Virus record (IMG/VR): IMGVR_UViG_3300045988_113151
Length of the DNA stretch: 64,000 nt
Reading direction: 5' to 3' (one strand)
Source: a virus
The notes under the pieces are model-generated. The model had not been told where the DNA came from. It made no database searches and saw only the letters and a list, made by a program, of their open reading frames with translations. This document shows, piece after piece, positions 22,601-55,876 of the stretch. Made by a program: the position numbers and the translations under genes. Position 1 is the stretch's first letter. Every line of letters begins with the position of its first letter.

Positions 22601-25600
22601 CTTACAGATTAGCAAGCATTGAACGGAGTTAAACCAGAATCTATTAATGCTACTTTGGGTAGACTTAAAAAGAAAAATCCCAAAGCAATAGAATTTATCG
22701 AAAAACAAGCTAAAGCTAGTGCAAAACCATATTCAGATGGAGAGATAAACCAAGCGGATGCTGCTGTATATATTAGACCAGAGTTCTATAAGAAAATGAT
22801 GATTGCTCTTGGTGAGTGGAGTGATGAAATAGCTGAAGCATATAGGATTATGGAAGAGTCTGATGATTGGTTATCAGATGTAGATTTATACAACAAAGCT
22901 GTAAAAGCAATTACCCAACCTCTTAAGATGGTATACTTTGGTGATCATTTTGATGAAACGTTAGGTATGAACGTTAATACATTTGATAAAATGGCTCTTT
23001 TCCCATTGTTTAAGTCGTTTGCTAAAGCCGATAACAAGTATCTATATGACCGTATGAATGATGAAAGCAAGGGAGTAATAGATATGGTAGCTTTCGAATC
23101 AGCTATTAAAGTAGGTGGTAGACAGAAACTGTCATACTATAAAGATGGTAAAGTTAATTTAAGTGAACTTGATAAACCCAGTGATATAGATGGTAGAAAC
23201 GGAAATGGTTTGGCTACTTATACTCAAGATCTTAATCAAATCAGATTGCAGTTAAATACTGACCCTCATGAACATTTAGAAAGAGCTTTTGGTACTCAAG
23301 CTATTAAGATTGGTTTTGCAAACGTTGTAGATACACGTGATTATGGAGCAAATAAAGGGTTGGCAGTAAAAGGGGCAGATATTAAGCGTAATATTATGGA
23401 CGCTATTAATTCTCTATCAAAGATAGGATAGGATGAAATAAGAAGAGAGTTCTTTACTAAAGGTCACGTCGATAATAGAAAAATAGTCAATTATTTATAG
23501 AGGCAAGCTACTAATTCTGGTATGTCTGCTGAAATAGTTGCTAACTTAACTGTAGATGATAATGGAGATATCTTAATTCCAATTGAGGCTCAAAGTATTA
23601 GAGACTGGATTCAAACTAAGATAACATCCTTTGTAAACAAAGCAGTAGTAGATGTTAATACTCCTGGTGGTTCTGCTATTCAGATGTCTTCTTTCGCATA
23701 TGAAGCAGTTGGTAGAAATGTGAAAACAGATGAAGGTTTGGCTACAGCTTTTAATGAAGGCAAGAAACTTAAATTCTTAGCTAAAGAAGGTCATATGTAG
23801 GTAATACTTAGTGAAAACTTCTTTAGAGATATATTGCCCAAAGAGCTCAAAGATGCTAGTTATAGTACTAAACGAAAATGGTTAATTGATAATAACATTA
23901 TAGGGGACTCTTCTAAACCGTATGGTATAGGTTATCGTATTCCTACCCAAGGTCTATCCTCAATGTTTGCATTCTAGGTAGCAGATATTATGCCATAGAC
24001 TATTGGAGATACTATAATTGTACCAGAAGAGTTTACAGCAATGACTGGTTCTGATTTTGACGTAGACAAGTTATATTTAGCCACATATGCTTATAAAGAT
24101 GGAGTTAGAGTAGATTCAGAAGAAGATAGTAAAGAAGGAAATATAAATAAACTATTGGATAATTATTCACTAGTGTTAACTGACTTTACTAATATTGCTG
24201 AGACTCGTGCTTCTATTGACACACTTACTAAAATTCTACAAAAGGAAGTATTACCTATTGTTAAGCCTAGCAATAAAACAGAAGTAAAACCAATGTATGA
24301 ACTTGCTCCTTCATTCCAATTATCAAGAAAGACTGAATATACTGGAGGTAAAGCTGGTATTGCTCCATTTGCTTTGAATTCAACTAATCACGCTCTTACA
24401 CAATTTACCCATTTGTGCATTAATTATTCTAATTCAAATAGATATAATTTAGGAGCTTTAGATGAGGTAACAGGGGAAGATAATCAACGCATTATGGACT
24501 GGTTGTCCGCTATGATCAATGCTCATGTAGACGTTGCCAAAGACCCGTACATTATGACACTTAATGTTAATGCTATTACTTATAATATGACTTCTCTATT
24601 ATTACGAGGAGGTAAAGGTGAGAGCACATTCTACTTCTTAGCGCAGCCTGCTTTACGTAGATTTACTAAAGAGATGTTAGAAAGTAAAGGTATTATTGGT
24701 GCAGAAACAGGAGTAACTGAAAAAGACAAACTTAAGCAGATAGCGAAAGATTGTATGGAATATTTAAGAGACACCCTTATAAATATGCCAAGTAGTAGTG
24801 AGGATAAAGCTACATACACTCAATATTACAATGGATTAGCTGGCGAATACGGGTTATCTCAAATACCTGGATATGATAGTGTAGAAGTTGATTATAGTTA
24901 GGTATTTAACAAAGAAGCTGCTTCTAAGTCATTAAAAGACCCTTATTCTGCGCACGGTTTATACCAACAAGTAATATCAATAAGAGCTTATCAGGATTTA
25001 TCTCAGGATACAGAGGTGCTATCTAACTTAGTTCAATTATCTTAGATTGATACTAAGAAGTTCGGAAATACATTGCCTTTACAATTGAACTTTAAGAGAA
25101 GACTTGATAGATATATTGATAATTATTAGGCTAGATTTTATATTAAAAACAGAGATGATATAGAAAAGCCTATAAATTATTATTTATCTTCTACCTTCTT
25201 AAAAAGAAAATTAGACTCTGCTATTAATACTCCTAGAATATTATTAAGTAATCAAGTAATTGAAGCTACTAAAGGATATAAGAAAATATTTAATGCAGCA
25301 TGTGATTTCTTTATAGGTAATTCTTCAGATGGTCAGTTAGTAACTGATTTGTCTAAAATTATTACTACTATGTTGAGAACTAAAGCTGTAGTTAATAACT
25401 TACCTGATTTCAAAATCAGTGATTCTGAGTTCTTAAGTATGTTAAAAGGTCCTAATAGTATGGCTAAATAGTTAACTAAAATTAAAAATGAGTTGCGAAA
25501 ACGTAATGATTTGCCAGCTATTTCGTTCAATGGAGTCATAAAGAATGAGATACTAAACTACTTACAAGAATATGCTTCAGATGGTTCTTTACAAGAATAT

Positions 25601-26842
25601 GATAGAATAGTAACATCAGACAATGCTCTTACTAATACCTCTACTTATGAAAACAGATTATTATCTTCTTACTAGGATTTGTTAGAATGTGAAGATAGTA
25701 GTATAAGAGAGTTCGCTGATAAATTAGGCTTATATGCTTACCTTACTAGTTTTGATAATAGAGGAGTAGATTCGTTCTTTGATGTTATAACTACAGCTTG
25801 GAAGAAATCAAAAGGATATCCAGATGCTATTAAAGCTGCAATAAATATTATGAATGATGATACCTTACAAGGTATGCACTTCTTTGGATTTGACGCTGAA
25901 AGAATACAAAATGGTAATTATTCTTAGATATTTACAGAGATTGCTAGAAATGCTAGTAGAAATGAGAAGTTAGTACCAACTTATGAACTTAATCAATACG
26001 ATAGAAAATTGAATTTAGTACAGTTTAGAGATGGAAGTAGACCGTTACCTGCTACATTTGTTAGTTCTACTAACAAACCTTTTGTTAAAGTGTTAATTAG
26101 AGTTACTAATCCAAATGACTTTATAATATATCAAAAAGTTGCAAGCACATATCAAGTAGATGCTAATGGAGATGAAATCAAGAATACTAGAAAATCTGTG
26201 TATAAAGCTATACCAGCTTTAGGAGTAAAAGATGATAAAAAAGTATACTATGAGTATAATAAAATAGCAGATGAACAATCAGCATTTCCATAGAATGCAT
26301 TTCCTAAAGAAGCTATTATCAGTAGTGCTAAATTGGAAAGTAAGGTAAGAGAAGCGTTTAAAGCGCAAGTTGATAAAAATAAGAGTATACTCATGTATGA
26401 ATCTACAGATGCCATATATGTAAAAACGGCTGAAAGAGTAGAGCAAGTTAACGGATTTGAAGAACCAGAAAAGAGTACATATGGATCTGATATGGAATCT
26501 GCAAATGAAGTTTATAATACAGATGAGTCTCAATCTACTAACACTACAGTTGGCGAAGAGGAATCAATACCTACAACAATTATAGGAGAGACAGAATCTC
26601 CTACGTTATAGGATATGTATTATGATACACAAGACCCTACTCAAACTATAATTAGTGACGATGTGTTGTAGTTCTCAGATGAGACTTTTGGAGAGAACCC
26701 ATATTTTGATACTATCCTTGAGTCTGGTATTGCAGAGTATGAAAATGTACAGGATGTAATAAATAGCTTTGAGAGTACAGAAAATACTTTAACAGATAGT
26801 AATTTTAGTGACGAAGCGTATAAAACTTGTAAAGGTGAATAA
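13616..26842 (+). CDS. giant virion protein (4408 aa): HExxH metalloprotease-like motif plus crAss-type DxDxD RNA polymerase module
   Basis: ATG 13616 to TAA 26840-26842. Every gap between track ORFs was read codon by codon: 53 in-frame TAGs, no TAA/TGA. HEAFH at 19358-19372. YRIPTQGLSS...TAMTGSDFDVDKLY with DFDVD at 24053-24067. Confidence 0.75.
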
Positions 26843-33668: not shown

Positions 33669-34169
33669 CTATTTAGTTGAAATATTTAAATATTGTATTA
33701 TATCTTGTAAAGATATATCTTCGTCTTCAAGAGATTTTACTTCTTGCATAAAAGCTATAATATTATCTATAGATAATAAGCAAATATTATCGTTACAAAA
33801 TTTAATTACTTCTTCTTTATTTTTAATATTAAGATTATCTGCTATTATAGGCAATAACTCAATATTTTCATTAGCGTCATAATTGCGTACATAACGAACT
33901 CGTGAACATCTATCTTCCATATATTCACTTATATTACTTGTATCATTACAAGTCATAATTATAAGCTTTTTAGCAGTCTTTTCAACTCCATCTAAGAAAT
34001 CTAACATCTTTGTAGTATTAAATTTCTTTTCTATTTCATCAAATAAAATACATACTGGAGTTTCAAAAGTTTTAAAGAAGTTTATTAATTTATTTTCAGG
34101 AAATTTAGGGTCTATTATAATAATTGGCAAATTAGATTCTTTAGCTAATAATTTAGCTGTTACTGTTTT
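33669..34169 (-). CDS. AAA+ ATPase, exon 2
   Basis: Begins KTVTAKLLAKE (completes Walker A), then ILFDEIEK (Walker B) and IIMTCND (sensor 1). TAG stop at 33669-33671. Confidence 0.7.
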   Translation of the reverse strand, partial: KTVTAKLLAKESNLPIIIIDPKFPENKLINFFKTFETPVCILFDEIEKKFNTTKMLDFLDGVEKTAKKLIIMTCNDTSNISEYMEDRCSRVRYVRNYDANENIELLPIIADNLNIKNKEEVIKFCNDNICLLSIDNIIAFMQEVKSLEDEDISLQDIIQYLNISTK

Positions 34170-35253
34170 CAATTTTGTTATCGTTAGGTTTTTTATCCTA
34201 ACTTCTATAACTTCTAATTTGTTATAGTTCAGCGTACATTTTCATCTTTCTAAAAATAGTTAAGATGGAGAACACTCTTGGGAATATTATATTTATTCAA
34301 TTCCTACGCGTTACGCAGCTATAGATCCTTGCGAAATATCTATAGTTTGCTCGGTATTAGCATCACAGCCTTCACCGATTTTGCTCTCTAATAATTCATA
34401 CAATTTCTTATATGAACGGCAATATTGTTTATATAATTTATATTTTCTTTCTAAATATATAGTACTATTTTGATATAAAAAATTACATATTATAAAACCA
34501 GATCCTCTTGTAAAAATAAGTTCTGGAACAGAATGAGTAATTATAATTTTATGATTATTTAGTGGTAAATAATTTTGATATTTATTCAAAAATTCTACTG
34601 TACCACAAATTTTTATAGCAATTATGGTATGTTCTTTATTGCAATGTGTAATACATCCATCCCCATCAAAATATCCACGTAAAAAATCTTTTATTAAGTC
34701 TTTGCAACTAAATATATTTTCATTTGGAAACTTAAGTATATTAGATTTTTGTGGAACGCATCCATATTGTTTTAATGTATTACAAAAATGTTTGCTATTA
34801 AAAGAGCATCTATAAGCATTAAATACTTTATTATTTAATTTTACTTTTTTAAGTTTAATATTTCTACTGTGATTTATAAAATTATTAAACTTCTCAAGAT
34901 GTTCTTTATCTTTTTCAGCTAAAGACATTTCAAAACAGTTATCTCTCTTACTTATATTTCCATCTGCAAAAATAAAACCTAACCAATAAGCTTTTTCTTC
35001 TGTATCTATTGTATCAAACACATGTTCATTAATTTTTATCAAATTTTGACGATTTACTACTTTATATCCAGCTTTCTTAATTGCTCTAGAAATAGTCATT
35101 GCGTCTTTTTTATATTTTTTTGCTAAAAACTGAATGCTACATTTAGTATCTATATATTCTTTTATTATGTCTTCCATATCTATTAATTTAATTTTCTAAT
35201 AGAACGGGAAAAGTTATAATAAGTTATAAAAATTGTTAATAAATTATATTATT
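34170..35253 (-). mobile_element. group I-like intron carrying a LAGLIDADG homing endonuclease gene
   Basis: It interrupts the Walker A codons GTKGTG|KT. The exon ends in U (GGT|), the intron ends in G (..TTG|AAA), and the join is in phase. Hairpins lie 3' of the HEG: CTATAAC/GTTATAG and GTTAGG/CCTAAC. Confidence 0.65.
34311..35177 (-). CDS. LAGLIDADG homing endonuclease (double motif)
   Basis: YWLGFIFADGNI and FLRGYFDGDGCI. N-terminal HTH-like region. C terminus ...GSIAA. Confidence 0.85.
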   Translation of the reverse strand: MEDIIKEYIDTKCSIQFLAKKYKKDAMTISRAIKKAGYKVVNRQNLIKINEHVFDTIDTEEKAYWLGFIFADGNISKRDNCFEMSLAEKDKEHLEKFNNFINHSRNIKLKKVKLNNKVFNAYRCSFNSKHFCNTLKQYGCVPQKSNILKFPNENIFSCKDLIKDFLRGYFDGDGCITHCNKEHTIIAIKICGTVEFLNKYQNYLPLNNHKIIITHSVPELIFTRGSGFIICNFLYQNSTIYLERKYKLYKQYCRSYKKLYELLESKIGEGCDANTEQTIDISQGSIAA

Positions 35254-35526
35254 ACCAGTTCCTTTAGTTCCTGCTAATAATACTCCTGTTGTATTACTAG
35301 TAGTAGTGTTAAAATAGTTAATTATTCTTTTTCTAAAAATACTATCACTTTTAGTTTCATATATAGTACTAGGTAAATTTAGTTCACCATTTTCCTTAAA
35401 TATACTTCGCTCATTCCATCCATCCCACTCTAGATTATATACTTGATTAGGTATTAATTCATATTCATTACCTTTAGGTACAACAAATATTTCTTTACCT
35501 ATCTTAACAAATTCTTTTTTATTCAT
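35254..35526 (-). CDS. AAA+ ATPase, exon 1
   Basis: Ends ...GVLLAGTKGTG. The unspliced frame runs into NNIIY* inside the intron. Confidence 0.7.
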
Positions 35527-35529
35527 ATA

Positions 35530-35904
35530 TTATGATTTTAGTATATTAATTAAATTATCAACATCTTTATTATTGCGAACTATATAAAATTTAGTATTTG
35601 GTTCATTTAGACTTAAATAATATTTAAATAGTTTTTCCCTATTTGCCCAAGCGTCATTAGGGTATCCTTTACATTCAATAACAAAGTCTTTTCCTACAAA
35701 GTCAGGTAAATAAGTAATAGCTCTAATCTTAGAGCTATTATAAATAAAAGCTGGTAGCAAAGTATATCTATGTAATTCATAGTCTACTTTAATATCAGCT
35801 TCTTTTAATTTCTAGTACATATAAGCTTCTAGTTTAGATCGAAATATTATTCCATCTATTTCTTGTTTAGTAGCATTACGTACTTTCTTATTTTGTTTTA
35901 ACAT
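35530..35904 (-). CDS. DUF1064-like PD-(D/E)XK endonuclease (Holliday-junction resolvase-like) with one in-frame TAG
   Basis: ATG 35904. Reads MLKQNKKVRNATKQEIDGIIFRSKLEAYMY[TAG 35812-35814]KLKEADIKVDYELHRYTLLPAF...ITYLPDFVGKDFVIECKGY. The track ORF (35530-35760) is only the part after the TAG. Confidence 0.55.
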
Positions 35905-36205
35905 ATTTTACAGAATGAGTAAGATTTCCCTTAAAAAGAGCAAAATGTTCCAACCGTTCATAATATTTTCCTTCTTTAGTATAACCAACAGTTATTAAAA
36001 ATGAATAATCTTTTCCATTACGAAATGAATTAAATAATGCTGATATAGAACTACCTAAAAACTTACGTTTTTGGTTCCATTCAGTAAATTCACCACTTAA
36101 TATTTTACTAATAATAGTAGCAGGAAGTAACAATATTTTTCCTAGGATAACAGTTAAGTCAAAAGGTATAGCTAATATTTTACCTATAGTTTTTAATAGT
36201 TTCAT
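35888..36205 (-). CDS. hypothetical membrane protein (105 aa)
   Basis: Standard-code ORF with a hydrophobic N-terminal half; overlaps its neighbours. Confidence 0.45.
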   Translation of the reverse strand: MKLLKTIGKILAIPFDLTVILGKILLLPATIISKILSGEFTEWNQKRKFLGSSISALFNSFRNGKDYSFLITVGYTKEGKYYERLEHFALFKGNLTHSVKYVKTK

Positions 36206-37151
36206 ATAACCAATTTTTTATGTTTTCAAATCCATTTAATTTTATAGCATCAGATATATCCTTTGCATTCCATTTCTTATGCACTAATAGTGGTTTTAAA
36301 CCTGTTTTAAGGCTTATTTTACGAAGATATTTAATTCCAGCTGTATCTCTATCAAAACATATTAAAATGTGTTTAAAACGCTTCTTAAGGTTATCTAGAA
36401 CATCATCTGGAATAAATGTAGATTCTGATGCTGGAGAAATAGCAGATATACCCATTTCATACAAACACATAACATCTTTTAGTGATTTAGTAATTATGAG
36501 TAGATTATCAGTTTTAGGCAACTGTTTAAATCCTTGTATATCATACTGTCCTAAATTATTTCTCCATTTAGTATATTTATCTGCTAAAGGTCTGTATATT
36601 TTAAAGTTATTATAAACTTTATAAGCATACATGGGATTTTCTTTTTTATAAATCCCTTTCACTATACCATTGCAGAGATAATATTTAATACTATTTACAT
36701 TAAATTTCTTTAGTGTGTCGATACAGATATTAAATTGCGACCAGTAATTGATGTCTTCAGCTGTAAAATCTTGCCGAACTACACCAATTACTGTTTCTGT
36801 TGACGCTATATATTGCTTAGAGCTAACGAGTTTGGTATCGCTAGTAATTTTAAGTTTGTCTACTATGTCTAGTAATATATCATTATAATTGATTATTCCA
36901 GTATATAATGACACAAACTTTATAACATTACCGCAATCACCTGTTCCATGATCTTTAAAAAGTAGTTGTTTTGTACGTTTAGAATAGAATATCCCAAATG
37001 AAGGATTTTTATCCTTTCTAAATGGACTATTATAAATCATACCTACTTTAAATTGACCTAAATAATGAGCATATATATCATACTCTGTTACTCTAGATAA
37101 TATCCAATCTAAAGTAATATCGCTAAGTTTAGCTTTTTCTTTATCGTACAT
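36180..37151 (-). CDS. DNA primase (Toprim domain)
   Basis: ILICFDRDTAGIKY (Toprim DxD), LLIITKSLKDVM. Sits in the replication module. Confidence 0.65.
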   Translation of the reverse strand: MYDKEKAKLSDITLDWILSRVTEYDIYAHYLGQFKVGMIYNSPFRKDKNPSFGIFYSKRTKQLLFKDHGTGDCGNVIKFVSLYTGIINYNDILLDIVDKLKITSDTKLVSSKQYIASTETVIGVVRQDFTAEDINYWSQFNICIDTLKKFNVNSIKYYLCNGIVKGIYKKENPMYAYKVYNNFKIYRPLADKYTKWRNNLGQYDIQGFKQLPKTDNLLIITKSLKDVMCLYEMGISAISPASESTFIPDDVLDNLKKRFKHILICFDRDTAGIKYLRKISLKTGLKPLLVHKKWNAKDISDAIKLNGFENIKNWLYETIKNYR

Positions 37152-37171
37152 ATGCTTTCTGATTTTGTTTG

Positions 37172-37225
37172 TCTAAGTAAAAGGACTCGAACCTTTTGAT
37201 GTAGCCTTATTCTACAGTTACTTAG
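37172..37225 (-). ncRNA. 54-nt tRNA-like element lacking a D arm
   Basis: CTAAGTA-AC-TGTAG-AATAAGG-CTACA-TCA-AAAGG-TTCGAGT-CCTTT-TACTTAG-A. It has a 7-bp acceptor stem, a canonical T arm and one extra hairpin. It lies 20 nt upstream of the primase ATG. Confidence 0.45.
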
Positions 37226-37232
37226 TAATAAC

Positions 37233-37254
37233 GTGTGCCTAATTTTAGGCACAC
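37233..37254 (-). terminator. terminator-like hairpin after the SSB-like gene
   Basis: GTGTGCCTAA/TTAGGCACAC perfect inverted repeat. Confidence 0.5.
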
Positions 37255-37323
37255 TTATCAATTCCTAAAAACGAGGCTATTTCTAGCTTACGTAAATATT
37301 ACTTTTTTCTAAATTTTTTTAGT

Positions 37324-37944
37324 TTAGAAAGGTAGATCGTCTTCTTGCTTACTTAAAGCATCTTCTGCTTCTGCTGGAGATGACATGGTAGCTTGTAACG
37401 GATCTACCTGCTTTTCTGCATCTGCTTCAATAGGTTTAGTAAATTGGTCAATACCTAAAGCTACAATAGCAGAACTTTGTCCTTCTGGAAGTTCCATTGG
37501 TTCAATAAATGTATATGTTGAATGTCCAGGTAAAGTAGTATAACCATTTCTGTTATATACTACTTTAACACGTAATAAAGTATCTTTATTTGCATTATTC
37601 AACATATCTACGATAAATTGAGCAAATTCTTCAAATGAAGATCCAGTAAAGTTAATTTCTTCATCTTTATAGAAACACCAAAGAATTTGTAACATACGCT
37701 TAAACTGTCGATTTTCAGCTTGTTGTAAGTCTTCGTCTGTTACTATATATTGTCCTTTCTTAGGTTTCCATTCAGTGTGTTTCAAAGTAGCTCCATCTTT
37801 TTCAAAAGTAATCTCTAAAAAGGTTAAACCTGTAGGACTTACTTCAGTACGAGCTGATTTTAATTTTACATTTTCTTGAATACCTGCACCAATATATTTA
37901 ATATCTTTTGTTTCAATGCTTTTTGCTAATTCCTTGTTATACAT
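37324..37944 (-). CDS. single-stranded DNA-binding protein candidate
   Basis: The C-terminal acidic tip ...SKQEDDLPF matches the bacterial SSB tip (DDDIPF). Sits in the replication module. Confidence 0.5.
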   Translation of the reverse strand: MYNKELAKSIETKDIKYIGAGIQENVKLKSARTEVSPTGLTFLEITFEKDGATLKHTEWKPKKGQYIVTDEDLQQAENRQFKRMLQILWCFYKDEEINFTGSSFEEFAQFIVDMLNNANKDTLLRVKVVYNRNGYTTLPGHSTYTFIEPMELPEGQSSAIVALGIDQFTKPIEADAEKQVDPLQATMSSPAEAEDALSKQEDDLPF

Positions 37945-37957
37945 AACTTTCTAATTT

Positions 37958-38401
37958 TTAAGCTGCTAAATAAATTTTATCCCAATACGTTTTAATGTTA
38001 TTGTTTTCATCACTATCAGCAATAACAATTTTTTGTCCTCTTAAATGAGGAGCTCTAGCTTCTCTTACAGAGTTATCTCCACCTTCAAATGAAATAATAG
38101 TTTCATTCTTTTTACGATAGACATAACCTACTGCATCAGCTTCACCACAGACAATATCTCCTAGTCTTCCAACTAAGTCTATAGCCATTTCAGTTAATTC
38201 TTCTCCTTCCTTGTTAATCATTTTATCTTTAGTATGACCAACAAGAATAAAGTTATCACATAAGTCTTTAAACATATTAATAACTTTTTTAACTGCTTCT
38301 CTTAGATATAGATATCCAGAACCATTAGGTAATTGTCTAACATCAGTTCCAGTATATGTCTTCCCCATTGGGGTTTGGCGATCTTTGTATTCTGTATAAG
38401 A
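37958..38401 (-). CDS. Sak4-like (AAA_24) RecA-fold ATPase, exon 2 (5' boundary approximate)
   Basis: NFILVGHTKDK and GEADAVGYVYRK. The frame stays open upstream of the track ORF to 38404. Ends ...KIYLAA. Confidence 0.55.
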   Translation of the reverse strand, partial: SYTEYKDRQTPMGKTYTGTDVRQLPNGSGYLYLREAVKKVINMFKDLCDNFILVGHTKDKMINKEGEELTEMAIDLVGRLGDIVCGEADAVGYVYRKKNETIISFEGGDNSVREARAPHLRGQKIVIADSDENNNIKTYWDKIYLAA

Positions 38402-39226
38402 CGCAACTCTTATACACGTTCTCTTATGAACTGCTATATGTCACCATATAGAATAGACTATATCATCTCCTTTTACCTTAAGCGGCAGTCAGGAGTTCCC
38501 CGTTTCCATTACCATTAGCTTGTAATGTACTCTCTTTCGAGATAGTCGTTGAACTTTCATTATGAAAATTGTTATAAATTTGTTCTACTTTTTGTAAAAA
38601 TAAATCTTTTTCAAATTTATTTTTCATTATATTGCAATACTTACAACAAGAAACACAGTTTTCTATAGTATAATCTTTTTTAGAATTTACTCTATCTATT
38701 CCAAATGCTCGTGGACAATTACAGTAATAACAGTTATTAGATAATAACTGCTTCATTTGTTCATCTGTAAGTTTTATAAGATAGCCTCTAGATTTAGCAT
38801 TACTTTTAATACTATTTATCTTATCTCTATAAGACTTAGTACTAGAAATTTTATATTTATTTTCAGCTGTTTCTTTTTGTCTATCTATAACGCAATTTGA
38901 ACAAGATACTGGTATATAAGTTCTACTTTTAGAAAATCTATCAGCTCGTACAACTGTAAATTTTCCGCATCTATTGCATTTACATTTGAAATAACTTCTT
39001 TTAATTTGTTTTTCTTTATCGTAAGTTTCATGATCTAACTCTATTATAGTTAGACATCCTACGGTAATTCCAATATATTTATCTAACGTTTCTTTTTTCA
39101 TAATGCTTAGCTTCTGATTGTTTTTACCACTATGTGTATATAACGTATGTAGTGGTAAAAATGTTCCAGAAATTAAGGGAATTTTTCGATAAGATTTTCA
39201 TCTTAAAGCTCCAATTATTTTTAGAG
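38402..39226 (-). mobile_element. group I-like intron carrying an HNH endonuclease gene (boundaries within about 20 nt)
   Basis: It separates the Walker A/B half from the C-terminal half of one ATPase. An in-phase join is possible after U of ACU (39227) and after G (38402). Confidence 0.5.
38478..39101 (-). CDS. HNH homing endonuclease
   Basis: YYCNCPRAFGIDRVNSKKDYTIENCVSCCKYCNIMKNKF plus an N-terminal Cys-rich zinc-finger region. Ends ...ELLTAA. Confidence 0.8.
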   Translation of the reverse strand: MKKETLDKYIGITVGCLTIIELDHETYDKEKQIKRSYFKCKCNRCGKFTVVRADRFSKSRTYIPVSCSNCVIDRQKETAENKYKISSTKSYRDKINSIKSNAKSRGYLIKLTDEQMKQLLSNNCYYCNCPRAFGIDRVNSKKDYTIENCVSCCKYCNIMKNKFEKDLFLQKVEQIYNNFHNESSTTISKESTLQANGNGNGELLTAA

Positions 39227-39538
39227 AGTCGCTGCATACGGCAGACACATTTCCTCTAATCTAGTAGCATTATCAATAGCTATATACTTATAAGGATTTG
39301 TGCCTGTTTCTTTAATCTTAGCTCTAATTGCATTAGCAATTTCTCCAAGATCAGCTACACTCCTAGCTTGTACAGATAGAGCTTCAAGAAACTCAGAACC
39401 ACCCTCTAAATCTACTATTAGACAGTTATCTAATGTAGATAATAGAGTAGTCTTTCCTGATTTTGGTTTACCAAAAATAATTAAAAATCTAGGATTTTGT
39501 ACTTTTGGTTTATTTTTTTCTGTAGGTAGTACTAACAT
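39227..39538 (-). CDS. Sak4-like (AAA_24) ATPase, exon 1
   Basis: FLIIFGKPKSGKTTLL (Walker A), YIAIDNATRLEE (Walker B-like). Confidence 0.6.
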
Positions 39539-39614
39539 ATTTTTATTATTAGTACTTTACTTAGCAATGATATTATTCTGATATTTTATGATAGTATAAG
39601 TAAAGCAAGGTTTA

Positions 39615-40169
39615 TTATGCTGCAATATTAATATTAATGTTAATAATAACATTATTAATAGTTTCTTTTTGTTTTTCACTTAAGTTCTTAGGTAAGATAT
39701 AATAATTACCATATTTAGGAACATAAGTATTACCAACTTGAACAAAGTTCTGATAGAAACGAACAGGTACACCAAGCCATTTAAAATCATAACCTTTATC
39801 AAAGTTACCATTTACCGATTTAGCATAGTCATCAAGTTTCTTCATAGCTATATCAAATTGGTCAAGAAGATTATATTTTTCATACTTATAGACACTATTA
39901 AATGGACAAGTATAGCATGGCATATCTGCGCAAGGACATGTCCAAGACGATGGACGTAATGCAGATACGTGATATTTAGGAGAGATACCAAATGCAATAT
40001 AGTCATTAGGACCTGCATATTGCATACTAGTTTGTTCATTTTTAGGACCATCTATACCATCCATAGTTAAGTATGGATATTTATTAGCAATTGTATTAAT
40101 CAAGAAATTCTTCAATTCACCTGTTTTATCGTATTTCTTTTCCGGAAGTTCAATCAAAAATTGTTTCAT
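39615..40169 (-). CDS. hypothetical Cys-rich protein (184 aa)
   Basis: SWTCPCADMPCYTCPFN. Ends ...NINIAA. Confidence 0.5.
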   Translation of the reverse strand: MKQFLIELPEKKYDKTGELKNFLINTIANKYPYLTMDGIDGPKNEQTSMQYAGPNDYIAFGISPKYHVSALRPSSWTCPCADMPCYTCPFNSVYKYEKYNLLDQFDIAMKKLDDYAKSVNGNFDKGYDFKWLGVPVRFYQNFVQVGNTYVPKYGNYYILPKNLSEKQKETINNVIINININIAA

Positions 40170-40180
40170 AATTTCAGCCT

Positions 40181-41131
40181 TTAAATTTTTTTAAAAATAA
40201 CTTTTTCTTTATTTACTTCTGCGTTTGTTTCAATCAAGTTACCGTATTTTAGTTCATTATCAAATGCTAATATGCAAGGTTCTCCAGCATCTCTTACTTT
40301 TAAGAAATGTAGATATACTTTATTTTTTACAGGTAAACGATTAACACCATAAATTGCTAACCCCAGCAATTCTGGTCTTGATAATGCCATAACAAAGTCA
40401 CTAGCTTGAAATATAGCATCAGAAGCTGCTAAGTCACTCCTCATCGGATAATGGCTACTTGGATTATTAAGTCTATCAGGTTGTTCAATATTTCGATTCA
40501 TCTGTGAAATCTGTATTATACTAGTAAAAGATAATTTCTTCATTCGTATAAACATTTTCTGTAAATCTACTATTGTACCTCTTTCACTATCTCCTTCGAC
40601 AAGAAGAGCATGGTCTAATATTATAATTAACCACTTGTCTTTTGCAATATTATCGTGAAAGTATTTTATAGTTTCTTCTATCTTTTCTACACTGCAAGGA
40701 GTATCTACATAATATATTGGATACTTCTTAATAGATTCTACTGTAGTTTTTACCTTAGTAAAATCTTCATCAGATAAATCTGCTTCAGCACTATATAATT
40801 CTGAAGTTGTTTTTCGTAACTTATTACTTAGTTTTCTACCTATTTGTCTATAACTAAGCATTTCGAAACTAAAACTGAGAATAACTATATCCTGATCAGA
40901 ATTAAGGTCAATTAAATCAGTTTCTAATGTATTAGCAAATGCTGATTTACCAGAACCAGAACCTCCTGCTATTGTTAATATCATATTTGGTTCGATTCCG
41001 CCACACGTAACTCTATTGAATTTACTCCAACGAGTCTTTAGTGGTACTATAGTATGGTTTTTCCTATTTTCTATATATTTAACAGATTCATCTGCTACTT
41101 GAGAAATAGTTTTAAATAATATTGGCTCCAT
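40181..41131 (-). CDS. DnaB-like replicative helicase (RecA-fold domain)
   Basis: ILTIAGGSGSGKSAF (Walker A), WLIIILDHALLV (Walker B), QISQMNRN. Confidence 0.7.
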   Translation of the reverse strand: MEPILFKTISQVADESVKYIENRKNHTIVPLKTRWSKFNRVTCGGIEPNMILTIAGGSGSGKSAFANTLETDLIDLNSDQDIVILSFSFEMLSYRQIGRKLSNKLRKTTSELYSAEADLSDEDFTKVKTTVESIKKYPIYYVDTPCSVEKIEETIKYFHDNIAKDKWLIIILDHALLVEGDSERGTIVDLQKMFIRMKKLSFTSIIQISQMNRNIEQPDRLNNPSSHYPMRSDLAASDAIFQASDFVMALSRPELLGLAIYGVNRLPVKNKVYLHFLKVRDAGEPCILAFDNELKYGNLIETNAEVNKEKVIFKKI

Positions 41132-41687
41132 AAGCTATTTCATTATTTATATCTTGTTCCATACTAAATTGCATTTCTTCTTCAGTAACTTCCCACTCTC
41201 GTTGAGTGAGCCATTTCCACATTGTTTTCATATATCCTATTTTACCAGTTATCATCTTATTATCAATTTCAAACTGAAGACATTTGATTAAATGTTCATG
41301 CATTGCTCTAGATTTTCCGACAATCCTATTGTATTCCTTTCTACATTTGTTAATATTAGAACGTAGGAATCCTTTAGTACCATCAGGTCTAGTAACATAC
41401 ACTGGAAATACTTCATAGAATTCATCAAACCAAGATTTATCTTGTTTAAGACGTTTTCTTGTATCTTCTGAAATACTATAAATTTTACTATCACCAGAAG
41501 TTATAACTGTGATAATGTTACTGTCGACTAACTCTTGAATTTCGTTCTCACTAATTCGGCTGAGAAATTGGTGAATGTCTTGATTATTACTTTGATTCTC
41601 ATTCAAAACAAGAGTTAGAAATACTAATTGATTAATTGACATTTTTCCATAAATGTCGAATAACGATGTATCTAATTCTAGTATCAT
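41112..41687 (-). CDS. hypothetical protein, possible replication organizer/helicase loader
   Basis: Position immediately upstream of the helicase. WFDEFYEVFP...MKTMWKWLTQREWE resembles DnaD/organizer C-terminal regions (weak, from memory). Confidence 0.35.
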   Translation of the reverse strand: MILELDTSLFDIYGKMSINQLVFLTLVLNENQSNNQDIHQFLSRISENEIQELVDSNIITVITSGDSKIYSISEDTRKRLKQDKSWFDEFYEVFPVYVTRPDGTKGFLRSNINKCRKEYNRIVGKSRAMHEHLIKCLQFEIDNKMITGKIGYMKTMWKWLTQREWEVTEEEMQFSMEQDINNEIAYGANII

Positions 41688-41736
41688 AATATAGTTTTAT
41701 TTTTATGAGCTAGCTGATATCATCTGAAAATATTTG

Positions 41737-43746
41737 TTAAAATAAGCTCAACTGTTTAGGTTCAAGCTCTTCTATTATCTTAAGGCACTCTTTTAAATAG
41801 TACCGATAATTAATCTTTCTTTCTTCTATAGGTTTGTTATCAAATTTGTTTAATATAGTAATACCAGATGCCGTTAATAGATTAGTAAAATTAGTTCTTC
41901 TACCTTCAGAATCTACTAAACATTTATATAAATAAGGACCATTAGTAGATGCATAAAACCTATTTATACGTTGTATAAGGTTATTATTATATTCTACAGA
42001 GAACTTCTTATCTACTTTCTGGTAAGTGAGAAACTTATTAATATCTTTACAATTATAAATAGTATCTCTTACTGGTATATTATCAACAAAATAATCTCTA
42101 ATTGCTTCAGGAATTATCTTAGGAGACATACCTTTGCCGAGTAATACTTTAGTAATAAACATACCTTTTTCTTTTATATAATCATCTTTAATTGCATCTA
42201 AAGATGTATAAGGTTTGCCTTTTTTATTTAAAGCTTTTTCAGGATTTGTTTTAAATAGTTTCTTCATTTCCTGATATCCTTCAGATACTGCTATATAATC
42301 ATTAATAGCATACTGATACATAGCTTCAAAACGGTCTTCTTCTAATACAAGTTTAGTTTGTTGTTCCCAACTTCTACATATTTCTTGTACTTTACTATAA
42401 TAATCTTTTTTAAGTAATACAAATAGACCATCTGTGTTAGCTTGTACTATTCTACAACCTATATCTGTTAATGATTCAGCTAACATAAGTAATAACAGCT
42501 GACCATTAATTCGGATTTGCATAACTGCAAATGGACTATAACAAAAGTTATGTTCATTTTGTAAGTTACCACTTAATCCATTTAAAGCTAATTTTAAGGT
42601 TTCGTTTTTAACTTTATTACCTGTATGTTTAGCTTCAATTCGTTCGTTCTTAATCTGTGAATATACTTCTAAGAACTCTGGACCTAAATGTTTAGGATAA
42701 AACTTATATTCTATTAGCATACTAGGATATAGAGATGCAACGTCAATGTCTATTAACATTTCATCTTCCTTAGGAATAATTATTTCTGGATTATTTACAG
42801 AATGTATTCCTCCAACTCCTACTGAATATCTTAAACCTCTAAATACAAACTTATTTTCGTATCCTTTTCTTCCTGGAGAAACTATTTGTTTCTTCATATC
42901 AGATAATACATTTTTTAGTATAGGATCTCTATATTCAATAAAAGGTAATATTACTTCATTTAGTGCTATAACATCTGCTGGACTTCTTAAATCTTTAATA
43001 TCCCACCAAGTTAAACCTGTTTTTTCGAGATACTTTTGAGTTAAGATTTTCATGCCAATATTTACACCATCTTTACTTAATACTCTTACTCCATATTCAT
43101 CTTCAATTGCTATTCTTAATTCAACTTTATCTTTACATTTATTTAGTAATGCTTCAGTTGAATCTACATCATTTATATTATATTCAATCATTTCATCAAT
43201 TAAATCTGTATCTAGAGGTTTTGTCCAATCATGAGCAAACTCTAATACATTTTTGTATTGCATAGTTACTTGTATTTCTTTTAGACCTACACGTAACTTT
43301 TGAGAATATAACATAGTAAGAATATCAAATGTTTCAAAATTAACAGCATATTTCCACCTTTTCCAAGCAGATATATCGTCAGAAGTAGTTATAATTTTAC
43401 TTAGGTTATATAAACTATCACAAATTCTTAGATAGTTCATATTAATCATTTTATCGTAATAACTTATTATATAATTTATAATAGCATTATCATAATGAAG
43501 ATTATTATACCCAGCAAATATTTTATTAGTATTAAATTGTATATCTGTAGTATATATATCATTCCAACTATAAGAATTATTTCTTATAGTATAGAAGAAA
43601 TCTACAAGTTGTCTTAACTCATTTTTTCTACATGATATTTCAAATTTATAATATTGTCCAGTTTCTGTATTTTTAGCAGTACAATGAAACACATTTTGGA
43701 AGACTTCGATATCATATACATATACTGTTTTTCCTCTTATCTTCAT
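41737..43746 (-). CDS. family B DNA polymerase
   Basis: Exo I YVYDIEVF, Exo II NNLHYDNAII, Exo III YNINDVDSTEAL, motif A DIDVASLYPSMLI, motif B KLALNGLSGNL, motif C QANTDGLFV. Start taken at MKIRGK (43746), because the longer ORF runs into the tRNA. Confidence 0.9.
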   Translation of the reverse strand: MKIRGKTVYVYDIEVFQNVFHCTAKNTETGQYYKFEISCRKNELRQLVDFFYTIRNNSYSWNDIYTTDIQFNTNKIFAGYNNLHYDNAIINYIISYYDKMINMNYLRICDSLYNLSKIITTSDDISAWKRWKYAVNFETFDILTMLYSQKLRVGLKEIQVTMQYKNVLEFAHDWTKPLDTDLIDEMIEYNINDVDSTEALLNKCKDKVELRIAIEDEYGVRVLSKDGVNIGMKILTQKYLEKTGLTWWDIKDLRSPADVIALNEVILPFIEYRDPILKNVLSDMKKQIVSPGRKGYENKFVFRGLRYSVGVGGIHSVNNPEIIIPKEDEMLIDIDVASLYPSMLIEYKFYPKHLGPEFLEVYSQIKNERIEAKHTGNKVKNETLKLALNGLSGNLQNEHNFCYSPFAVMQIRINGQLLLLMLAESLTDIGCRIVQANTDGLFVLLKKDYYSKVQEICRSWEQQTKLVLEEDRFEAMYQYAINDYIAVSEGYQEMKKLFKTNPEKALNKKGKPYTSLDAIKDDYIKEKGMFITKVLLGKGMSPKIIPEAIRDYFVDNIPVRDTIYNCKDINKFLTYQKVDKKFSVEYNNNLIQRINRFYASTNGPYLYKCLVDSEGRRTNFTNLLTASGITILNKFDNKPIEERKINYRYYLKECLKIIEELEPKQLSLF

Positions 43747-43763
43747 AAAATATAGTTTTATAG

Positions 43764-43837
43764 TGATTCTATTGCGATTCGAACGCAAAACCTACACTTT
43801 AGAAGAGTGTTGCTCTATCCAATTGAGCTATAGAATC
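43764..43837 (-). tRNA. tRNA-Arg(TCT): tRNA-Arg (anticodon TCT)
   Basis: GATTCTA-TA-GCTC-AATTGGATA-GAGC-A-ACACT-CTTCTAA-AGTGT-AGGTT-TTGCG-TTCGAAT-CGCAA-TAGAATC-A. A full cloverleaf folded by hand. Confidence 0.85.
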
Positions 43838-43875
43838 AAGTGAGGCATTAAAATTTATGCCTCGTATAAATTATT

Positions 43876-44880
43876 TTAAACTGCTTCTGCTGTGTAATAG
43901 TCAGGATATAAATTCTTAAGTTCTTTAAGTTTTATTTCATAATCTTTTGATGAAGCAGTCCATCCAGTACATATTCGCAATAGTTGATCTGTAGCATTAT
44001 CATAAATATTAATGCTAATAAAATCTTCTATTTTATCTACTAACTTAGCAGATAAAGCTGTTAATGAATCATGCAAATATGCTAAGGTTTTATTAGAATA
44101 ATTCTTAACAAATACTACTGGTTTATGTTCTGAGTTAAATTTTCTGAACTCTAAACGATACTTAAATCTAGCTAGTTTCTTTTCTCGTATCGCTTTTATC
44201 AGTTTTTGTATTTTAGTTTCATGTGCAGATTCTTCTGCTGCATGCTTTAAATAGTTATTAGCTTTACCGTATTCTTCACTGTTCGAGACTAAATCTTTAC
44301 GCCATAAACTAAATTCTCGGCTATCTAATTTACTGAGTTTTAGTAATTTAGCAGAATCTCTTCTTTTCTTATTTTCAGATTGAATATTCATTTTATCAGC
44401 CTCATTTATAGCTGATTTTAAATATCGGATATCTTTTACTTTTGATATATTATTTTTAGTAGCAAAAGAAATATCTTTTAGTGTTGGCTGTCTTCTTATA
44501 GTTTTACTATAAGTTTTATTTTCAGTGTTAAAGTTAATAGTATAAGTAATTTTCTGATTAGCTAACGCAGCTTTTGCAGCTTTAGCTACAGTATTCCATT
44601 CAAAAACGATATCTGTCTTTGCTCCTTTACTTGGATTAGGTTTTGTAGTAACTATTTTAATTTTCTTATCAATAGTTTCTTCTTCTATTTCGTATAGTTC
44701 TTCTAATTTCTTATTCTTCTCCATCAAGGCATTTATCTTGCGATTACGATTTTCTGAATATCGTTTCATCTTTGCCTCATATCTTTCTAGAGGAGTTTTT
44801 ACTGCTTTTTCCTGAATTACGAAATATTTTTCACCTGTTTCTTTATTTCTTTTATTTAATTTGATAGTATATTTTTCCAT
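43876..44880 (-). CDS. hypothetical Lys-rich protein (334 aa)
   Basis: Standard-code ORF, TAA stop. Confidence 0.55.
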   Translation of the reverse strand: MEKYTIKLNKRNKETGEKYFVIQEKAVKTPLERYEAKMKRYSENRNRKINALMEKNKKLEELYEIEEETIDKKIKIVTTKPNPSKGAKTDIVFEWNTVAKAAKAALANQKITYTINFNTENKTYSKTIRRQPTLKDISFATKNNISKVKDIRYLKSAINEADKMNIQSENKKRRDSAKLLKLSKLDSREFSLWRKDLVSNSEEYGKANNYLKHAAEESAHETKIQKLIKAIREKKLARFKYRLEFRKFNSEHKPVVFVKNYSNKTLAYLHDSLTALSAKLVDKIEDFISINIYDNATDQLLRICTGWTASSKDYEIKLKELKNLYPDYYTAEAV

Positions 44881-44900
44881 ATTGATTACGAATTTTAATT

Positions 44901-44941
44901 AATAAAAAAGTAGTTAGTAAGTAATATACCTACTAACTACT
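44901..44941 (-). terminator. rho-independent terminator
   Basis: Minus strand: AGTAGTTAGTA-loop-TACTAACTACT followed by TTTTTATT. Confidence 0.65.
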
Positions 44942-44976
44942 AACTACTAAAAATAAACACACAACAATAAAAACAA

Positions 44977-45483
44977 CTAAGCTGCCAAGCTTAAAGGAGC
45001 GATAGTATCATCAAACTCCGTTTCGTTATTAAACTTTTCAAGTTTATTGTTCAATTCAATTATTTGTAAATCTAGTTCTTTAATACGTGCAAATTTCCAG
45101 TTAGAAGTAAAAATTTCTGTACGATTTAAATTTTTCTTACCTTTCTTTGCTTTAAGAACAGGATTTAATGTTCGAAAACTATTTGAACTAATTTTATTAC
45201 GAATTTCTTTTAGCTCACATAGACGAAAAATGTCTAACTGATTACAATCTTTCGGTAAATCACTTAGTTTCTTAAGTCCCATATTAATAGCAAGTAACTT
45301 AAGTTTAATCAATGCACGCTTTTCAGCAAGCATTTTGATTTCTTCAAATAAAACTTTTAGGTCATATTTACGCATATAGTTTTTATTTACTACATTTTCT
45401 GCATAAATAATGTCCCAATATTGTTTTAACTGATATGATATATTATTACGTTCTTCTATAAAATTCTTTGATTTCTTTGTCAT
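44977..45483 (-). CDS. hypothetical protein (168 aa)
   Basis: Standard-code ORF ending ...APLSLAA with a TAG stop (44977-44979). Confidence 0.55.
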   Translation of the reverse strand: MTKKSKNFIEERNNISYQLKQYWDIIYAENVVNKNYMRKYDLKVLFEEIKMLAEKRALIKLKLLAINMGLKKLSDLPKDCNQLDIFRLCELKEIRNKISSNSFRTLNPVLKAKKGKKNLNRTEIFTSNWKFARIKELDLQIIELNNKLEKFNNETEFDDTIAPLSLAA

Positions 45484-51793: not shown

Positions 51794-52351
51794 TTAGTAA
51801 ATATTTGCTATTTTTTGTTTTAATCGTTGTCTTGCTTTATTTAAATCTGATTTAACTTTAGATTCTGGTAAAGCAAATTTTTCAGATATCTCATTATAAG
51901 ATAGACCTTCTATTCGAGCGTTTATTAAATCTCTATATTTCTTTCTAAGTGTTAGAATAGCTTGTTCAACTATTTTTACTTTTTCTTGTAAAACTAATTG
52001 TTCTTCAGGACTTTTTTCGATATTTTCTAATTGAATAGTATTATCTTCATCGTCCATATAGTTATTTAATTGCTCTTTCTTATTTCTTCTTATATAATCT
52101 ATTGAACTGTTAACTGCAATAGTTTTTAACCACATTTCAAATGAAATATGTTGTACATAAGAATCTAATTTTTGATAAGCTTTAGTAAATACTACAGATG
52201 TTAAATCATCTGCTATATCTGTATTCTTTACTATATTATAAATAGTAAACCAAATATTTGATTTATATAATTTATAAAGCTTAGTAAAGGCACTTTCTGA
52301 ACCTTGTTTAGCCTGTTCTACTAAAGTAATTACTTCTTGTGTCATAGGCAT
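51794..52351 (-). CDS. ECF-type sigma-70 family sigma factor
   Basis: Region 2 (IADDLTSVVFTKAYQKLDSY...FEMWLKTIAVNSSIDYIRR) and region 4 HTH (LSYNEISEKFALPESKVKSDLNKARQRLK). Confidence 0.8.
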   Translation of the reverse strand: MPMTQEVITLVEQAKQGSESAFTKLYKLYKSNIWFTIYNIVKNTDIADDLTSVVFTKAYQKLDSYVQHISFEMWLKTIAVNSSIDYIRRNKKEQLNNYMDDEDNTIQLENIEKSPEEQLVLQEKVKIVEQAILTLRKKYRDLINARIEGLSYNEISEKFALPESKVKSDLNKARQRLKQKIANIY

Positions 52352-54067: not shown

Positions 54068-54141
54068 TTCACGGAGCAGGATTCGAACCTGCACTCATTT
54101 CCCATATCCGTTCTGTGTCTAACCAATTGCACCATCCGTGA
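54068..54141 (-). ncRNA. 74-nt tRNA-like element without an anticodon stem
   Basis: TCACGGA/TCCGTGA acceptor stem, D arm GTG-AATTGGTTAGA-CAC, T arm GCAGG-TTCGAAT-CCTGC. The 22 nt in the anticodon-arm position (AGAACGGATATGGGAAATGAGT) cannot form a stem. Confidence 0.5.
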
Positions 54142-54142
54142 C

Positions 54143-54283
54143 CTGCTTTTTACGACATTAGCTTAGCCGTTGACTTATCGTATTACGCTGCAATACGAGT
54201 ATAGTCTGTTACAAAAGATTTGTCATTTCTGACGTCTATTGACCTATTCATTTTCATCCTCGCTGTCAAATCCATAATACCCC
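54143..54283 (-). ncRNA. ssrA: tmRNA-like gene, coding piece (5' acceptor strand, tag frame); 3' end approximate
   Basis: GGGGTATTATGGATTTGACAGCGAGG (54283-54258) matches the tmRNA 5' consensus. AATAGACGTC is followed by AGA AAT GAC ... ATT GCA GCG TAA (stop 54183-54185) inside the hairpin 54197-54179. Confidence 0.6.
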
Positions 54284-54382
54284 ATTAGTAGGATTTTCAC
54301 CTACTTTGAAGCTTTGCGACATTTAGTCTAGGAGTGGTTTATACCCTTGCCAAGAGGAATCGAACCTCTATGCTTCTGACCG

Positions 54383-54445
54383 TGGAGTATGAGGGAGTCG
54401 AACCCTCGTCCAAACGATTCATCCAATGACCTAACAGTCAATATA
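54383..54445 (-). ncRNA. ssrA: tmRNA-like gene, acceptor piece (T arm and 3' acceptor strand); 5' end approximate
   Basis: GGAC-GAGGG-TTCGACT-CCCTC-ATACTCC-A (54411-54383). ATACTCC pairs with GGGGTAT at 54283-54277, with G3:U70 and A73. Confidence 0.6.
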
Positions 54446-54997
54446 GTAGTATATAGTTAAATCAATAACTATATACTTAAATATGAATAAACTGTAGGTA
54501 AGTATAATAAAAATAATAATCGGAAATATACTTTAAATACAGAGGCAGATAACTTACTATATGTTTAAAGATTTACTTCTATATCTAAGAGTAGCATCAA
54601 CTATTACTTTATTATAGGCTCTAGGCTCGCTTACTCTACAGTTTTAAATAGGCTTTGATTGCATGTATAGTATAGCAAGTGCTCATGTAAAACAGACTCG
54701 ATTGAACTATAGGCATAAAGCTCTCTATACATATACAATTTGATTTTGTGTACTGTTTATCGTCATAAGACTATTCATAGTACAAACTTCGCCAGTTTTA
54801 TACCCTCGTGGCTTATAGCTCTTGAGTTTAGAACGATCTTTAGGCTCATGATCAGTGGCACGTTTTTTACCCAGCAAAATGGGTCAAGCCTCTATTGCTT
54901 GTTGTCAATTCAACTGTGTACAACATCCTGCATCAAAAGACGACTTATCATGTTCTATGTACAGATTTGTCATAAAGACTTCTTCTTGGGTTGTCGA

Positions 54998-55612: not shown

Positions 55613-55876
55613 AGACTTTTAAATTTAAGAGAGTTATCTGTCTATTCGTACGTCTTATTCAACAGAAGCCCTTTTCCTTCTCCTGACCTATTACTAGGTT
55701 GACCGTTGTATAGTCCGTAGTACTCTATCTGTTAAGATTCCTTTAGGGGTTTGGCTTTATAACTCTCTAGGCTTAACTTCACCATAACTTAATAATTAAG
55801 TTAAAAACAAATTATCTGGCATGATAATATTAGTTGTTATAATAAATATTACTTTATTACTACACGCATGGAGATT

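Follow-up and report, generated by a model that had tools for sequence, protein, structure and literature searches.

The DNA described here (hereafter the window, i.e. the whole 64,000-nucleotide stretch of IMG/VR virus record IMGVR_UViG_3300045988_113151) belongs to a crAss-like phage of the family Suoliviridae, whose nearest records (cr6_1 and cr115_1) share about 78-82% nucleotide identity with it over the aligning parts. Replication and early genes occupy a minus-strand block (31.3-61 kb), in which five open reading frames (ORFs) terminate in two alanines (Ala-Ala, AA): two homing-endonuclease ORFs (of the LAGLIDADG and HNH types), a Sak4-like ATPase, and two proteins of 184 and 168 aa (Table 1). 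The ORFs, stop positions and tails reported for these five in a preliminary description of the stretch were all recovered, as was its statement that no other minus-strand protein ends in this way: AA ends were found in 5 of the 41 minus-strand genes scored (0 of the 36 others), and in none of the 18 late plus-strand genes (TAG taken as sense). The ORF introduced there as a Sak4-like ATPase kept its Sak4 identity and lost its standing as a complete gene, since 37958-38368 is the 3' exon of an intron-split Sak4 gene. The five ends fall into three origins, namely a by-product of intron RNA, a conserved protein motif and recent gains.

Table 1. Positions in the window (unless a related locus is named) of the features discussed, with C-terminal tails and stop codons; introns and splicing are predicted.
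Feature	Position	Strand	Tail, stop codon	Basis or remark
168-aa helical protein	44977..45483	-	...APLSLAA, TAG	first gene of AA-tailed slot upstream of polB
334-aa protein	43876..44880	-	...YYTAEAV	second gene of slot
tRNA-Arg(TCT)	43763..43837	-		sole tRNA of the window
polB, ORF as mechanically called	41737..43788	-	...KQLSLF	TTG start
184-aa Cys-rich protein	39615..40169	-	...NININIAA, TAA	ORF; lineage-specific AA end
Sak4-like (AAA_24) ATPase, exon 1	39223..39538	-		Pfam AAA_24 profile positions 5-84 (ORF 39221-39538); collinear with intact L011 gene
Group I intron (predicted), 840 nt, HNH ORF inside	38383..39222	-		exon restoration, splice-site bases, covariation
HNH homing-endonuclease ORF	38478..39101	-	...ELLTAA, TAA	PHROG endonuclease VII / HNH matches
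Sak4-like ATPase, exon 2	37958..38382	-	...KIYLAA, TAA	Pfam AAA_24 profile positions 98-175 (ORF 37958-38368)
206-aa SSB-like protein	37324..37944	-	...EDDLPF	beside Sak4
AAA ATPase, exon 1	35254..35526	-		ends inside P-loop (GTG/KT); collinear with intact 257-aa gene of L003
Group I-type intron (predicted), 1084 nt, LAGLIDADG ORF inside	34170..35253	-		exon restoration, splice-site bases, covariation
LAGLIDADG homing-endonuclease ORF	34311..35177	-	...QGSIAA, TAA	Pfam LAGLIDADG_3, PHROG 4645
AAA ATPase, exon 2	33669..34169	-	...NISTK	Pfam AAA PF00004
ORF-less intron copies	L014 about 2903-3157; L040 about 3966-4210			in Sak4-like gene
Permuted tmRNA	54092..54472	-	tag frame ...DYTRIAA	ARAGORN; Rfam tmRNA_permuted 48.5 bits (gathering score 47)
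185-aa protein	51794..52351	-		Sigma70_r2, r4 and ECF sigma-factor domains
Hatchet ribozymes (two)	56887..57025; 58928..59040	-		Rfam
RAGATH-14	59414..59650	-		Rfam
RAGATH-9	55627..55780	-		Rfam
RT-3 RNA	247..368	+		Rfam
4408-aa ORF	13616..26842	+		53 in-frame TAGs, TAG taken as sense

With alanine at 4.7% of residues, 0.09-0.11 AA ends would be expected per 41 genes, and the probability of at least five is 3e-8 to 1e-7 (about 1e-5 to 4e-5 once corrected for the 400 possible dipeptides). The enrichment that the preliminary description had suspected is thus borne out (5 against about 0.1 expected, P about 1e-7), AA being the only over-represented terminal dipeptide among the 41 window minus-strand genes; when the two endonucleases are left out, 3 of 39 genes still carry it (P about 2e-4, a binomial estimate at the same per-protein rate). 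No shared DNA motif was found around the five stop codons. All five proteins possess an ssrA-like terminus (Ala-Ala-COOH, of which the LVA and AAV types are close variants), and the variants observed across the clade are LAA, LVA, IAA, LTA, xAA and EAV.

The two endonuclease ORFs lie in insertions that split conserved genes. By comparison with the intact Sak4 gene of a near-identical, intron-less relative (L011; L numbers denote related loci), the window carries an 840-nt insertion (39222-38383), so that the HNH ORF sits between the two AAA_24-bearing Sak4 ORFs; a U ends the upstream exon, a G is the last base of the insertion, and its removal restores ...AATL/YRQTPMGK exactly. The AAA ATPase gene is interrupted in the same manner (exon ending in U, within GGT, and insertion ending in G), and removal restores GTG/KTVTAK as in L003. 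Exon restoration and the U/G splice-site rule thus hold for both, and both have a conserved covarying core: the HNH-bearing insertion folds into P7 (GACUA/UAGUC) and three hairpins (47 pairs, 18 compensatory), the 3' part of the LAGLIDADG-bearing one contains 52 pairs (18 compensatory), the observed score was in each case reached by 0 of 500 shuffles, and slid controls gave 0-4. No group I intron was matched when Rfam was run on the window at gathering score, or on 33.5-39.7 kb with E of at most 1, and the LAGLIDADG intron family had no match; the L044 copy of the HNH intron aligns to Intron_gpI (E 1e-5) with 35.6 bits, short of the required 50. Long inserted ORFs and divergence of the subgroup are the probable reasons why the gathering score is not reached. 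On the basis of exon restoration, splice-site bases, covariation and the sub-threshold match of L044, both insertions are predicted to be spliced group I introns with homing-endonuclease ORFs. Their precise insertion into conserved genes, the U/G splice rule, the P7 R/S elements and the position of the ORF, which starts from a peripheral loop and reaches with its 3' end into core helices, are shared with the HNH- or LAGLIDADG-encoding group I introns known from phages; the differences are that the LAGLIDADG-bearing intron is without an Rfam match and that splicing is here predicted from sequence.

The LAGLIDADG intron family was observed at equivalent GGT/AAA (Gly/Lys) P-loop codons of two different ATPase genes, i.e. 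in the AAA ATPase gene of the window, L001, L012 and L013, and, devoid of an endonuclease ORF, in the Sak4-like gene of L014/15 and L040/41. Furthermore, a stretch of about 55 nt in the core of the HNH intron (P7' to P9; 38411-38471, minus strand) is 91-94% identical to unannotated DNA of Bacillus, Enterococcus and Proteus phages, which suggests that this group I intron core is widely shared.

The endonuclease tails coincide with these cores. The last ~28 codons of the LAGLIDADG ORF and the last ~29 of the HNH ORF (the latter spanning the P7 pairing) overlap the intron core, and they are almost nucleotide-invariant among relatives whose endonucleases are only 61-67% identical as proteins. In the HNH intron the Ala-Ala-stop codons (GCC GCU UAA) form the tip of a hairpin just 5' of the S element GAUAUAGUC; in the LAGLIDADG intron they (GCU GCG UAA) lie within the invariant GCUGCGUAACGCGUAGG, which is kept in the ORF-less intron copies of L014/15 and L040/41 and in L004, where the LAGLIDADG ORF is broken. 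In L014 the frame of exon 1 enters the intron and stops at the same UAA, yielding ...GFIAA. Since the Ala-Ala-stop codons are bases of a conserved structured RNA, no protein-level explanation is needed for the endonuclease tails, which are best explained as by-products of the intron RNA; the earlier proposal that they are built-in degrons thereby becomes superfluous. Against this stands the fact that covariation is confined to the helices that flank or enclose the small hairpins with the Ala codons of the endonucleases and is missing from those hairpins themselves, and for this reason secondary selection on the protein tails is possible. A stronger version, in which the AA ends were selected as degrons that limit endonuclease toxicity and the ORFs became fixed to stop where the ribozyme spells Ala-Ala-stop, could draw on the same hairpin tips, on a synonymous change of the second Ala codon in L031 (GCT to GCA), and on the presence of AA ends in 4 of 5 distinct LAGLIDADG and 4 of 6 distinct HNH sequences within a clade that favours such ends. 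We nevertheless hold it to be improbable, as the same bases are kept where the LAGLIDADG intron has no ORF, as the endonuclease of L047 ends ahead of the conserved core and leaves the whole of it non-coding (although both Ala codons are replaced there, GCUGCG to CACCG), and as endonuclease variants with other tails exist, namely ...GEDIV (L059, where a 4-nt deletion at the end of the HNH ORF lets the frame continue), ...LSA (L034, where the HNH-intron hairpin is cut down to a GUAA tetraloop) and ...RLYE.

The 168-aa protein, encoded upstream of polB, shows the opposite pattern of constraint: its end varies in its bases and is kept in its residues. Among 82 related loci (fetched around the helicase gene), all 34 distinct orthologues end in [LIV][AVT]A (LAA 15, LVA 12, IAA 4, LTA 2, VTA 1), as do, in A, 28 of 29 homologues in a 5.8-billion-protein database; the end of this protein is conserved in orthologues at the amino-acid level. 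Its family encodes the final Ala by GCA, GCT, GCC and GCG, uses five codons for Leu and employs all three stop codons. Because codons and stop codons vary freely while the residues stay, selection on this tail is at the level of the amino acids. The AlphaFold2 (AF2) model is helical and confident (predicted local distance difference test, pLDDT, 92.8 overall) except at the last 8 residues (69), and in the tail the [LIV][AVT]A-COOH motif comes after a linker that is flexible and in many cases acidic. An exhaustive profile search retrieved 111 near-full-length representatives of the family (50% identity clusters), of which 40 end in AA, 12 in VA, 5 in AV and 2 in TA; in distant relatives the tail is absent, or is replaced in four (P0185, P0188, P0200 and P0209) by DDLPF/DLPF, the same tip as that of the phage SSB-like protein (SSB, single-stranded-DNA-binding protein). 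The C-terminal tail of this family thus looks like a swappable short motif. Pfam, PHROG, PDB sequence and Foldseek-versus-PDB searches gave no match for the 168-aa protein; its resemblance to the DIP1984/septicolysin family was an impression that no search backed, and was dropped.

The neighbouring 334-aa protein belongs to the same slot, by which we denote the interval from the g45771-family gene to polB with its two or three fast-evolving genes, the products of which almost always end in AA, VA or TA (e.g. NYLAA, LALAA and YSVAA in L081; DIAA, KTAA and SAAA in L078). In the 334-aa family AA ends (NAA, SAA, AAA, HAA, LAA) were recorded for 28 of the 36 members of its cluster and for 30 of the 36 homologues from the database, the lineage of the window having GCA GTT (AV) in their place. 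Its AF2 model has a pLDDT of 74, falling to 54 at the C-terminal end, and no function emerged for it from Pfam, PHROGs, PDB sequence search or Foldseek against PDB. Comparison of the slot families by hhalign revealed mostly no detectable homology (only c32-c85 and c25-c86 are related). Limited literature searches yielded no precedent for such slot-wide AA conservation across non-homologous crAss proteins.

For the remaining two proteins the expectation of conserved AA ends failed. Sak4 orthologues end in LPE in 25 of 41 distinct sequences, with LAA confined to the near relatives of the window, where it arose from the ancestral LPE by CCA GAA to GCA GCT; in the 184-aa family 27 of 41 distinct orthologues end in other residues (INL, LNL, GWF, DLF, GLF and similar) and 14 in AA (IAA, TAA, EAA). 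Judging from this distribution, both tails are recent lineage-specific gains. No Pfam, PHROG or PDB-search match gave a function for the 184-aa protein. Amino-acid-level conservation of the end is therefore a property of the 168-aa and 334-aa families, is absent from Sak4 and the 184-aa protein, and is replaced in the endonucleases by conservation at the nucleotide level.

Across the 82 loci the plus-strand ORFs were clustered into 1046 unique proteins (108 clusters). AA was the commonest terminal dipeptide, ending 139 of the 1046 proteins (13.3%, as compared to 0.25% for internal AA dipeptides); with one random member per cluster, 11.4 of 108 ended in AA versus 0.27 expected (P about 6e-15), and each of the 43 loci of at least 20 kb carried 1-4 AA-ended genes. 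The trait reaches enzymes as well: the metallophosphoesterase ends in AA in 13 of 38 cases and the AAA ATPase in 6 of 50 (with relatives' tails including DAA, EAA, SAA and CAA), both having gained the end recently in other lineages. Conversely, AA ends were never seen on polB, the SSB-like protein, primase, helicase or exonuclease in the 82 loci, and the outgroup crAss002 (Intestiviridae), taken because p-crAssphage NC_024711 was absent from the phage collection, has 1 in 33. Recoding or readthrough of TAG as a process masking the tail was considered and discarded, TAG stops being no commoner on AA-ended genes (17 of 139 vs 88 of 907; 12% vs 10%, P = 0.36). Taken together, these observations point to strong protein-level selection for a two-residue C-terminal mark that is carried on apparently exposed tails and restricted to the replication module; exposure is read from the low C-terminal pLDDT in AF2 models of the 168-aa and 334-aa proteins.

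As to what the mark does, we favour, with evenly balanced confidence, the reading that the xAA-COOH end is an ssrA-like degron of graded strength for host ClpXP. By mimicking the end of the host SsrA tag, it would bind to host ClpX in the axial pore, and perhaps to further AAA+ proteases, and this would give early and replication proteins a short and tunable half-life, with AA, VA, AV and TA ends as graded versions of the signal. ClpX is known to bind Ala-Ala-COO- in its axial pore (PMC10638403), and AA-ended ClpXP substrates comprise ssrA, cleaved RseA (...VAA), CtrA (...NAA) and poly-Ala tails (PMC8138137). In line with this contact and these substrates, only the last two residues are constrained in the phage proteins, the x of xAA being N, S, H, K, E, D, C, L, I or F, and this is one reason for the degron reading. 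Moreover, the SsrA tag of Bacteroides (GETNYALAA) nearly abolishes the signal of green fluorescent protein in B. thetaiotaomicron and is thus a strong degron there, and the phage itself encodes a transfer-messenger RNA (tmRNA): the tag frame ...RIAA noticed in the preliminary description proved real by ARAGORN and Rfam tmRNA_permuted. The tmRNA is annotated SsrA in RefSeq in the relatives cr114_1, cr60_1, cr10_1, cr52_1 and cr50_1 (none was detected by ARAGORN in cr6_1, despite partial similarity), and the tags of relatives (...DYTRIAA, ...DYTRLAA, ...DYTQLAVA) end in IAA, LAA and AVA and so alternate between AA and VA just as the protein tails do. The degron reading consequently draws on the AA enrichment, the slot rule, protein-level selection, the flexibility of the tails in AF2 models, the effect of the Bacteroides tag, the match to the tmRNA tags and the restriction to one module. 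As first proposed for the five window proteins, the degron idea is supported in part, namely by the enrichment, by the conservation of the 168-aa tail, by the clade-wide trait and by the match to the end that ClpX binds, and is weakened by Sak4, the 184-aa protein and the endonucleases. That the phage tmRNA might compete for the same proteolytic pathway is speculation.

Several points weigh against a degron. Sak4 and the 184-aa protein are without the AA end in most relatives; an acidic residue just before AA (DAA, EAA) is expected from ssrA mutagenesis to weaken ClpX binding; the phage host, and with it its ClpXP, is inferred from the phage family; and AA alternates with acidic-aromatic ends in three families (...EDLF/...EEDF in the AAA ATPase, ...DLF/...GWF in the 184-aa protein, ...DDLPF in the distant 168-aa relatives). 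Because of this alternation with docking-type ends, the motif could instead be a docking peptide for the replisome or for another phage or host partner, one that recruits proteins and does not destroy them, an alternative that we deem unlikely and yet serious. The module is indeed rich in C-terminal tails: that of polB resembles a beta-clamp-binding motif (QLSLF or QLELF in 57 of 78 relatives), that of the 206-aa SSB-like protein (for which neither Pfam nor PHROG gave a match) is an SSB-type acidic tip (LPF in 49 of 50 relatives), and four members of the wider 168-aa family bear DDLPF/DLPF. Like the SSB tip and the beta-clamp motifs, both of which are thus represented in the module, the AA mark is a short C-terminal peptide on replication proteins that follows a flexible and often acidic linker. 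Those motifs, however, rely on large hydrophobic or aromatic residues, whereas here only two small alanines and the carboxylate are kept (with the antepenultimate position free in most families), which is unlike such tips and like the ClpX contact; none of the AA-tailed proteins has an acidic stretch with a hydrophobic or aromatic end of the D-D-x-P-F or Q-L-x-L-F kind, and no candidate receptor was found in the window.

Under a further alternative the slot proteins would be decoys, i.e. competitive substrates or inhibitors that saturate host ClpXP and thereby shield other phage proteins or tmRNA-tagged products. Phage protease inhibitors act comparably (lambda CIII on FtsH, T4 PinA on Lon), and the cassette is always present, fast-evolving and devoid of enzymatic domains, and is found together with a phage tmRNA that has the same ends on its tags; as it would leave unexplained why enzymes (Sak4, metallophosphoesterase, AAA ATPase) sporadically carry AA ends, we regard this alternative as quite improbable. 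The notion that all five ends are due to chance or to a nucleotide-level artefact (for instance compositional bias or a gene-end motif in the DNA or RNA) holds for the two homing endonucleases, the tails of which lie in conserved intron RNA, is extremely improbable for the set as a whole (P about 1e-7 for the genes of the window and about 6e-15 for the clusters; no link to TAG stops), and on codon evidence is excluded for the non-endonuclease proteins, in whose families codons and stop codons vary freely while the amino acids stay and the downstream sequence is not conserved.

If the degron mechanism holds, the AA tails would be native ssrA-like degrons, a kind already known. One class of native ClpXP degrons, 'C-motif 1', was reportedly defined by Flynn and colleagues in 2003, and with it, RseA, Caulobacter CtrA and the poly-Ala tails added by RqcH the phage tails share the exposed Ala-Ala-COOH, the weak upstream constraint and the VA/AV variants; they differ in that the mark is placed on a syntenic cassette of non-homologous phage proteins, and is gained and lost repeatedly on replication enzymes inside a single phage family. 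Phage-encoded ends of this type have been described in the integration-dependent immunity of mycobacteriophages, in which, according to the account of Broussard et al. 2013 given in PMC9635641, Rep and Int carry C-terminal ssrA-like tags that set protein lifetime. In that account a repressor and an integrase, both from temperate phages, bear a tag that is removed when the phage integrates, whereas the crAss proteins belong to a replication module; no integrase was identified among the genes examined in the window, and no genetic switch was evident. Lambda O is a ClpX substrate (PMC8138137). With it, and with further unstable replication proteins of phages or plasmids that ClpXP or ClpAP degrades, the proposed likeness is that of replication-module proteins kept short-lived through a host AAA+ protease. 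The signal of lambda O is N-terminal, while that of the crAss proteins would be the C-terminal AA.

Among the other minus-strand genes we searched for a phage ClpP, SspB, Lon or PDZ protein and found none, the sole match being a sigma factor of the ECF (extracytoplasmic function) type, encoded in the early region. Further Rfam matches above gathering score, clustered in the early region, were two Hatchet ribozymes, RAGATH-14, RAGATH-9 and RT-3 RNA. The late plus-strand genes (1-31 kb; window 1-31251) form long ORFs only with TAG as sense, the 4408-aa ORF being an example, and the window yielded no suppressor tRNA. The gene of tRNA-Arg(TCT) overlaps the TTG that the mechanical call takes as the start of the polymerase ORF; the true start of this ORF is probably a downstream ATG, since relatives begin at MKIRGKTVYVYD.

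No other viruses are as abundant in the human gut as crAss-like phages, and most of the early and replication genes of these phages are without a known function. Kept across non-homologous slot proteins, gained repeatedly by replication enzymes and matched by the tag of a phage tmRNA, the AA mark offers a simple handle on how these phages control the lifetime or assembly of their proteins, and its tails are candidate natural degrons for the engineering of Bacteroides. The region also illustrates how gene calls can mislead, given that two genes are split by predicted group I introns and that the tail of an ORF can be dictated by ribozyme RNA. Finally, it is conceivable, though we think it distinctly unlikely, that Suoliviridae possess a coordinated AA-COOH programme, in which the slot cassette, the re-tailed replication enzymes and the tmRNA tags converge on one receptor (host ClpXP or a phage AAA+ ATPase); were this true, it could let the phage time, titrate or hijack proteolysis during infection.

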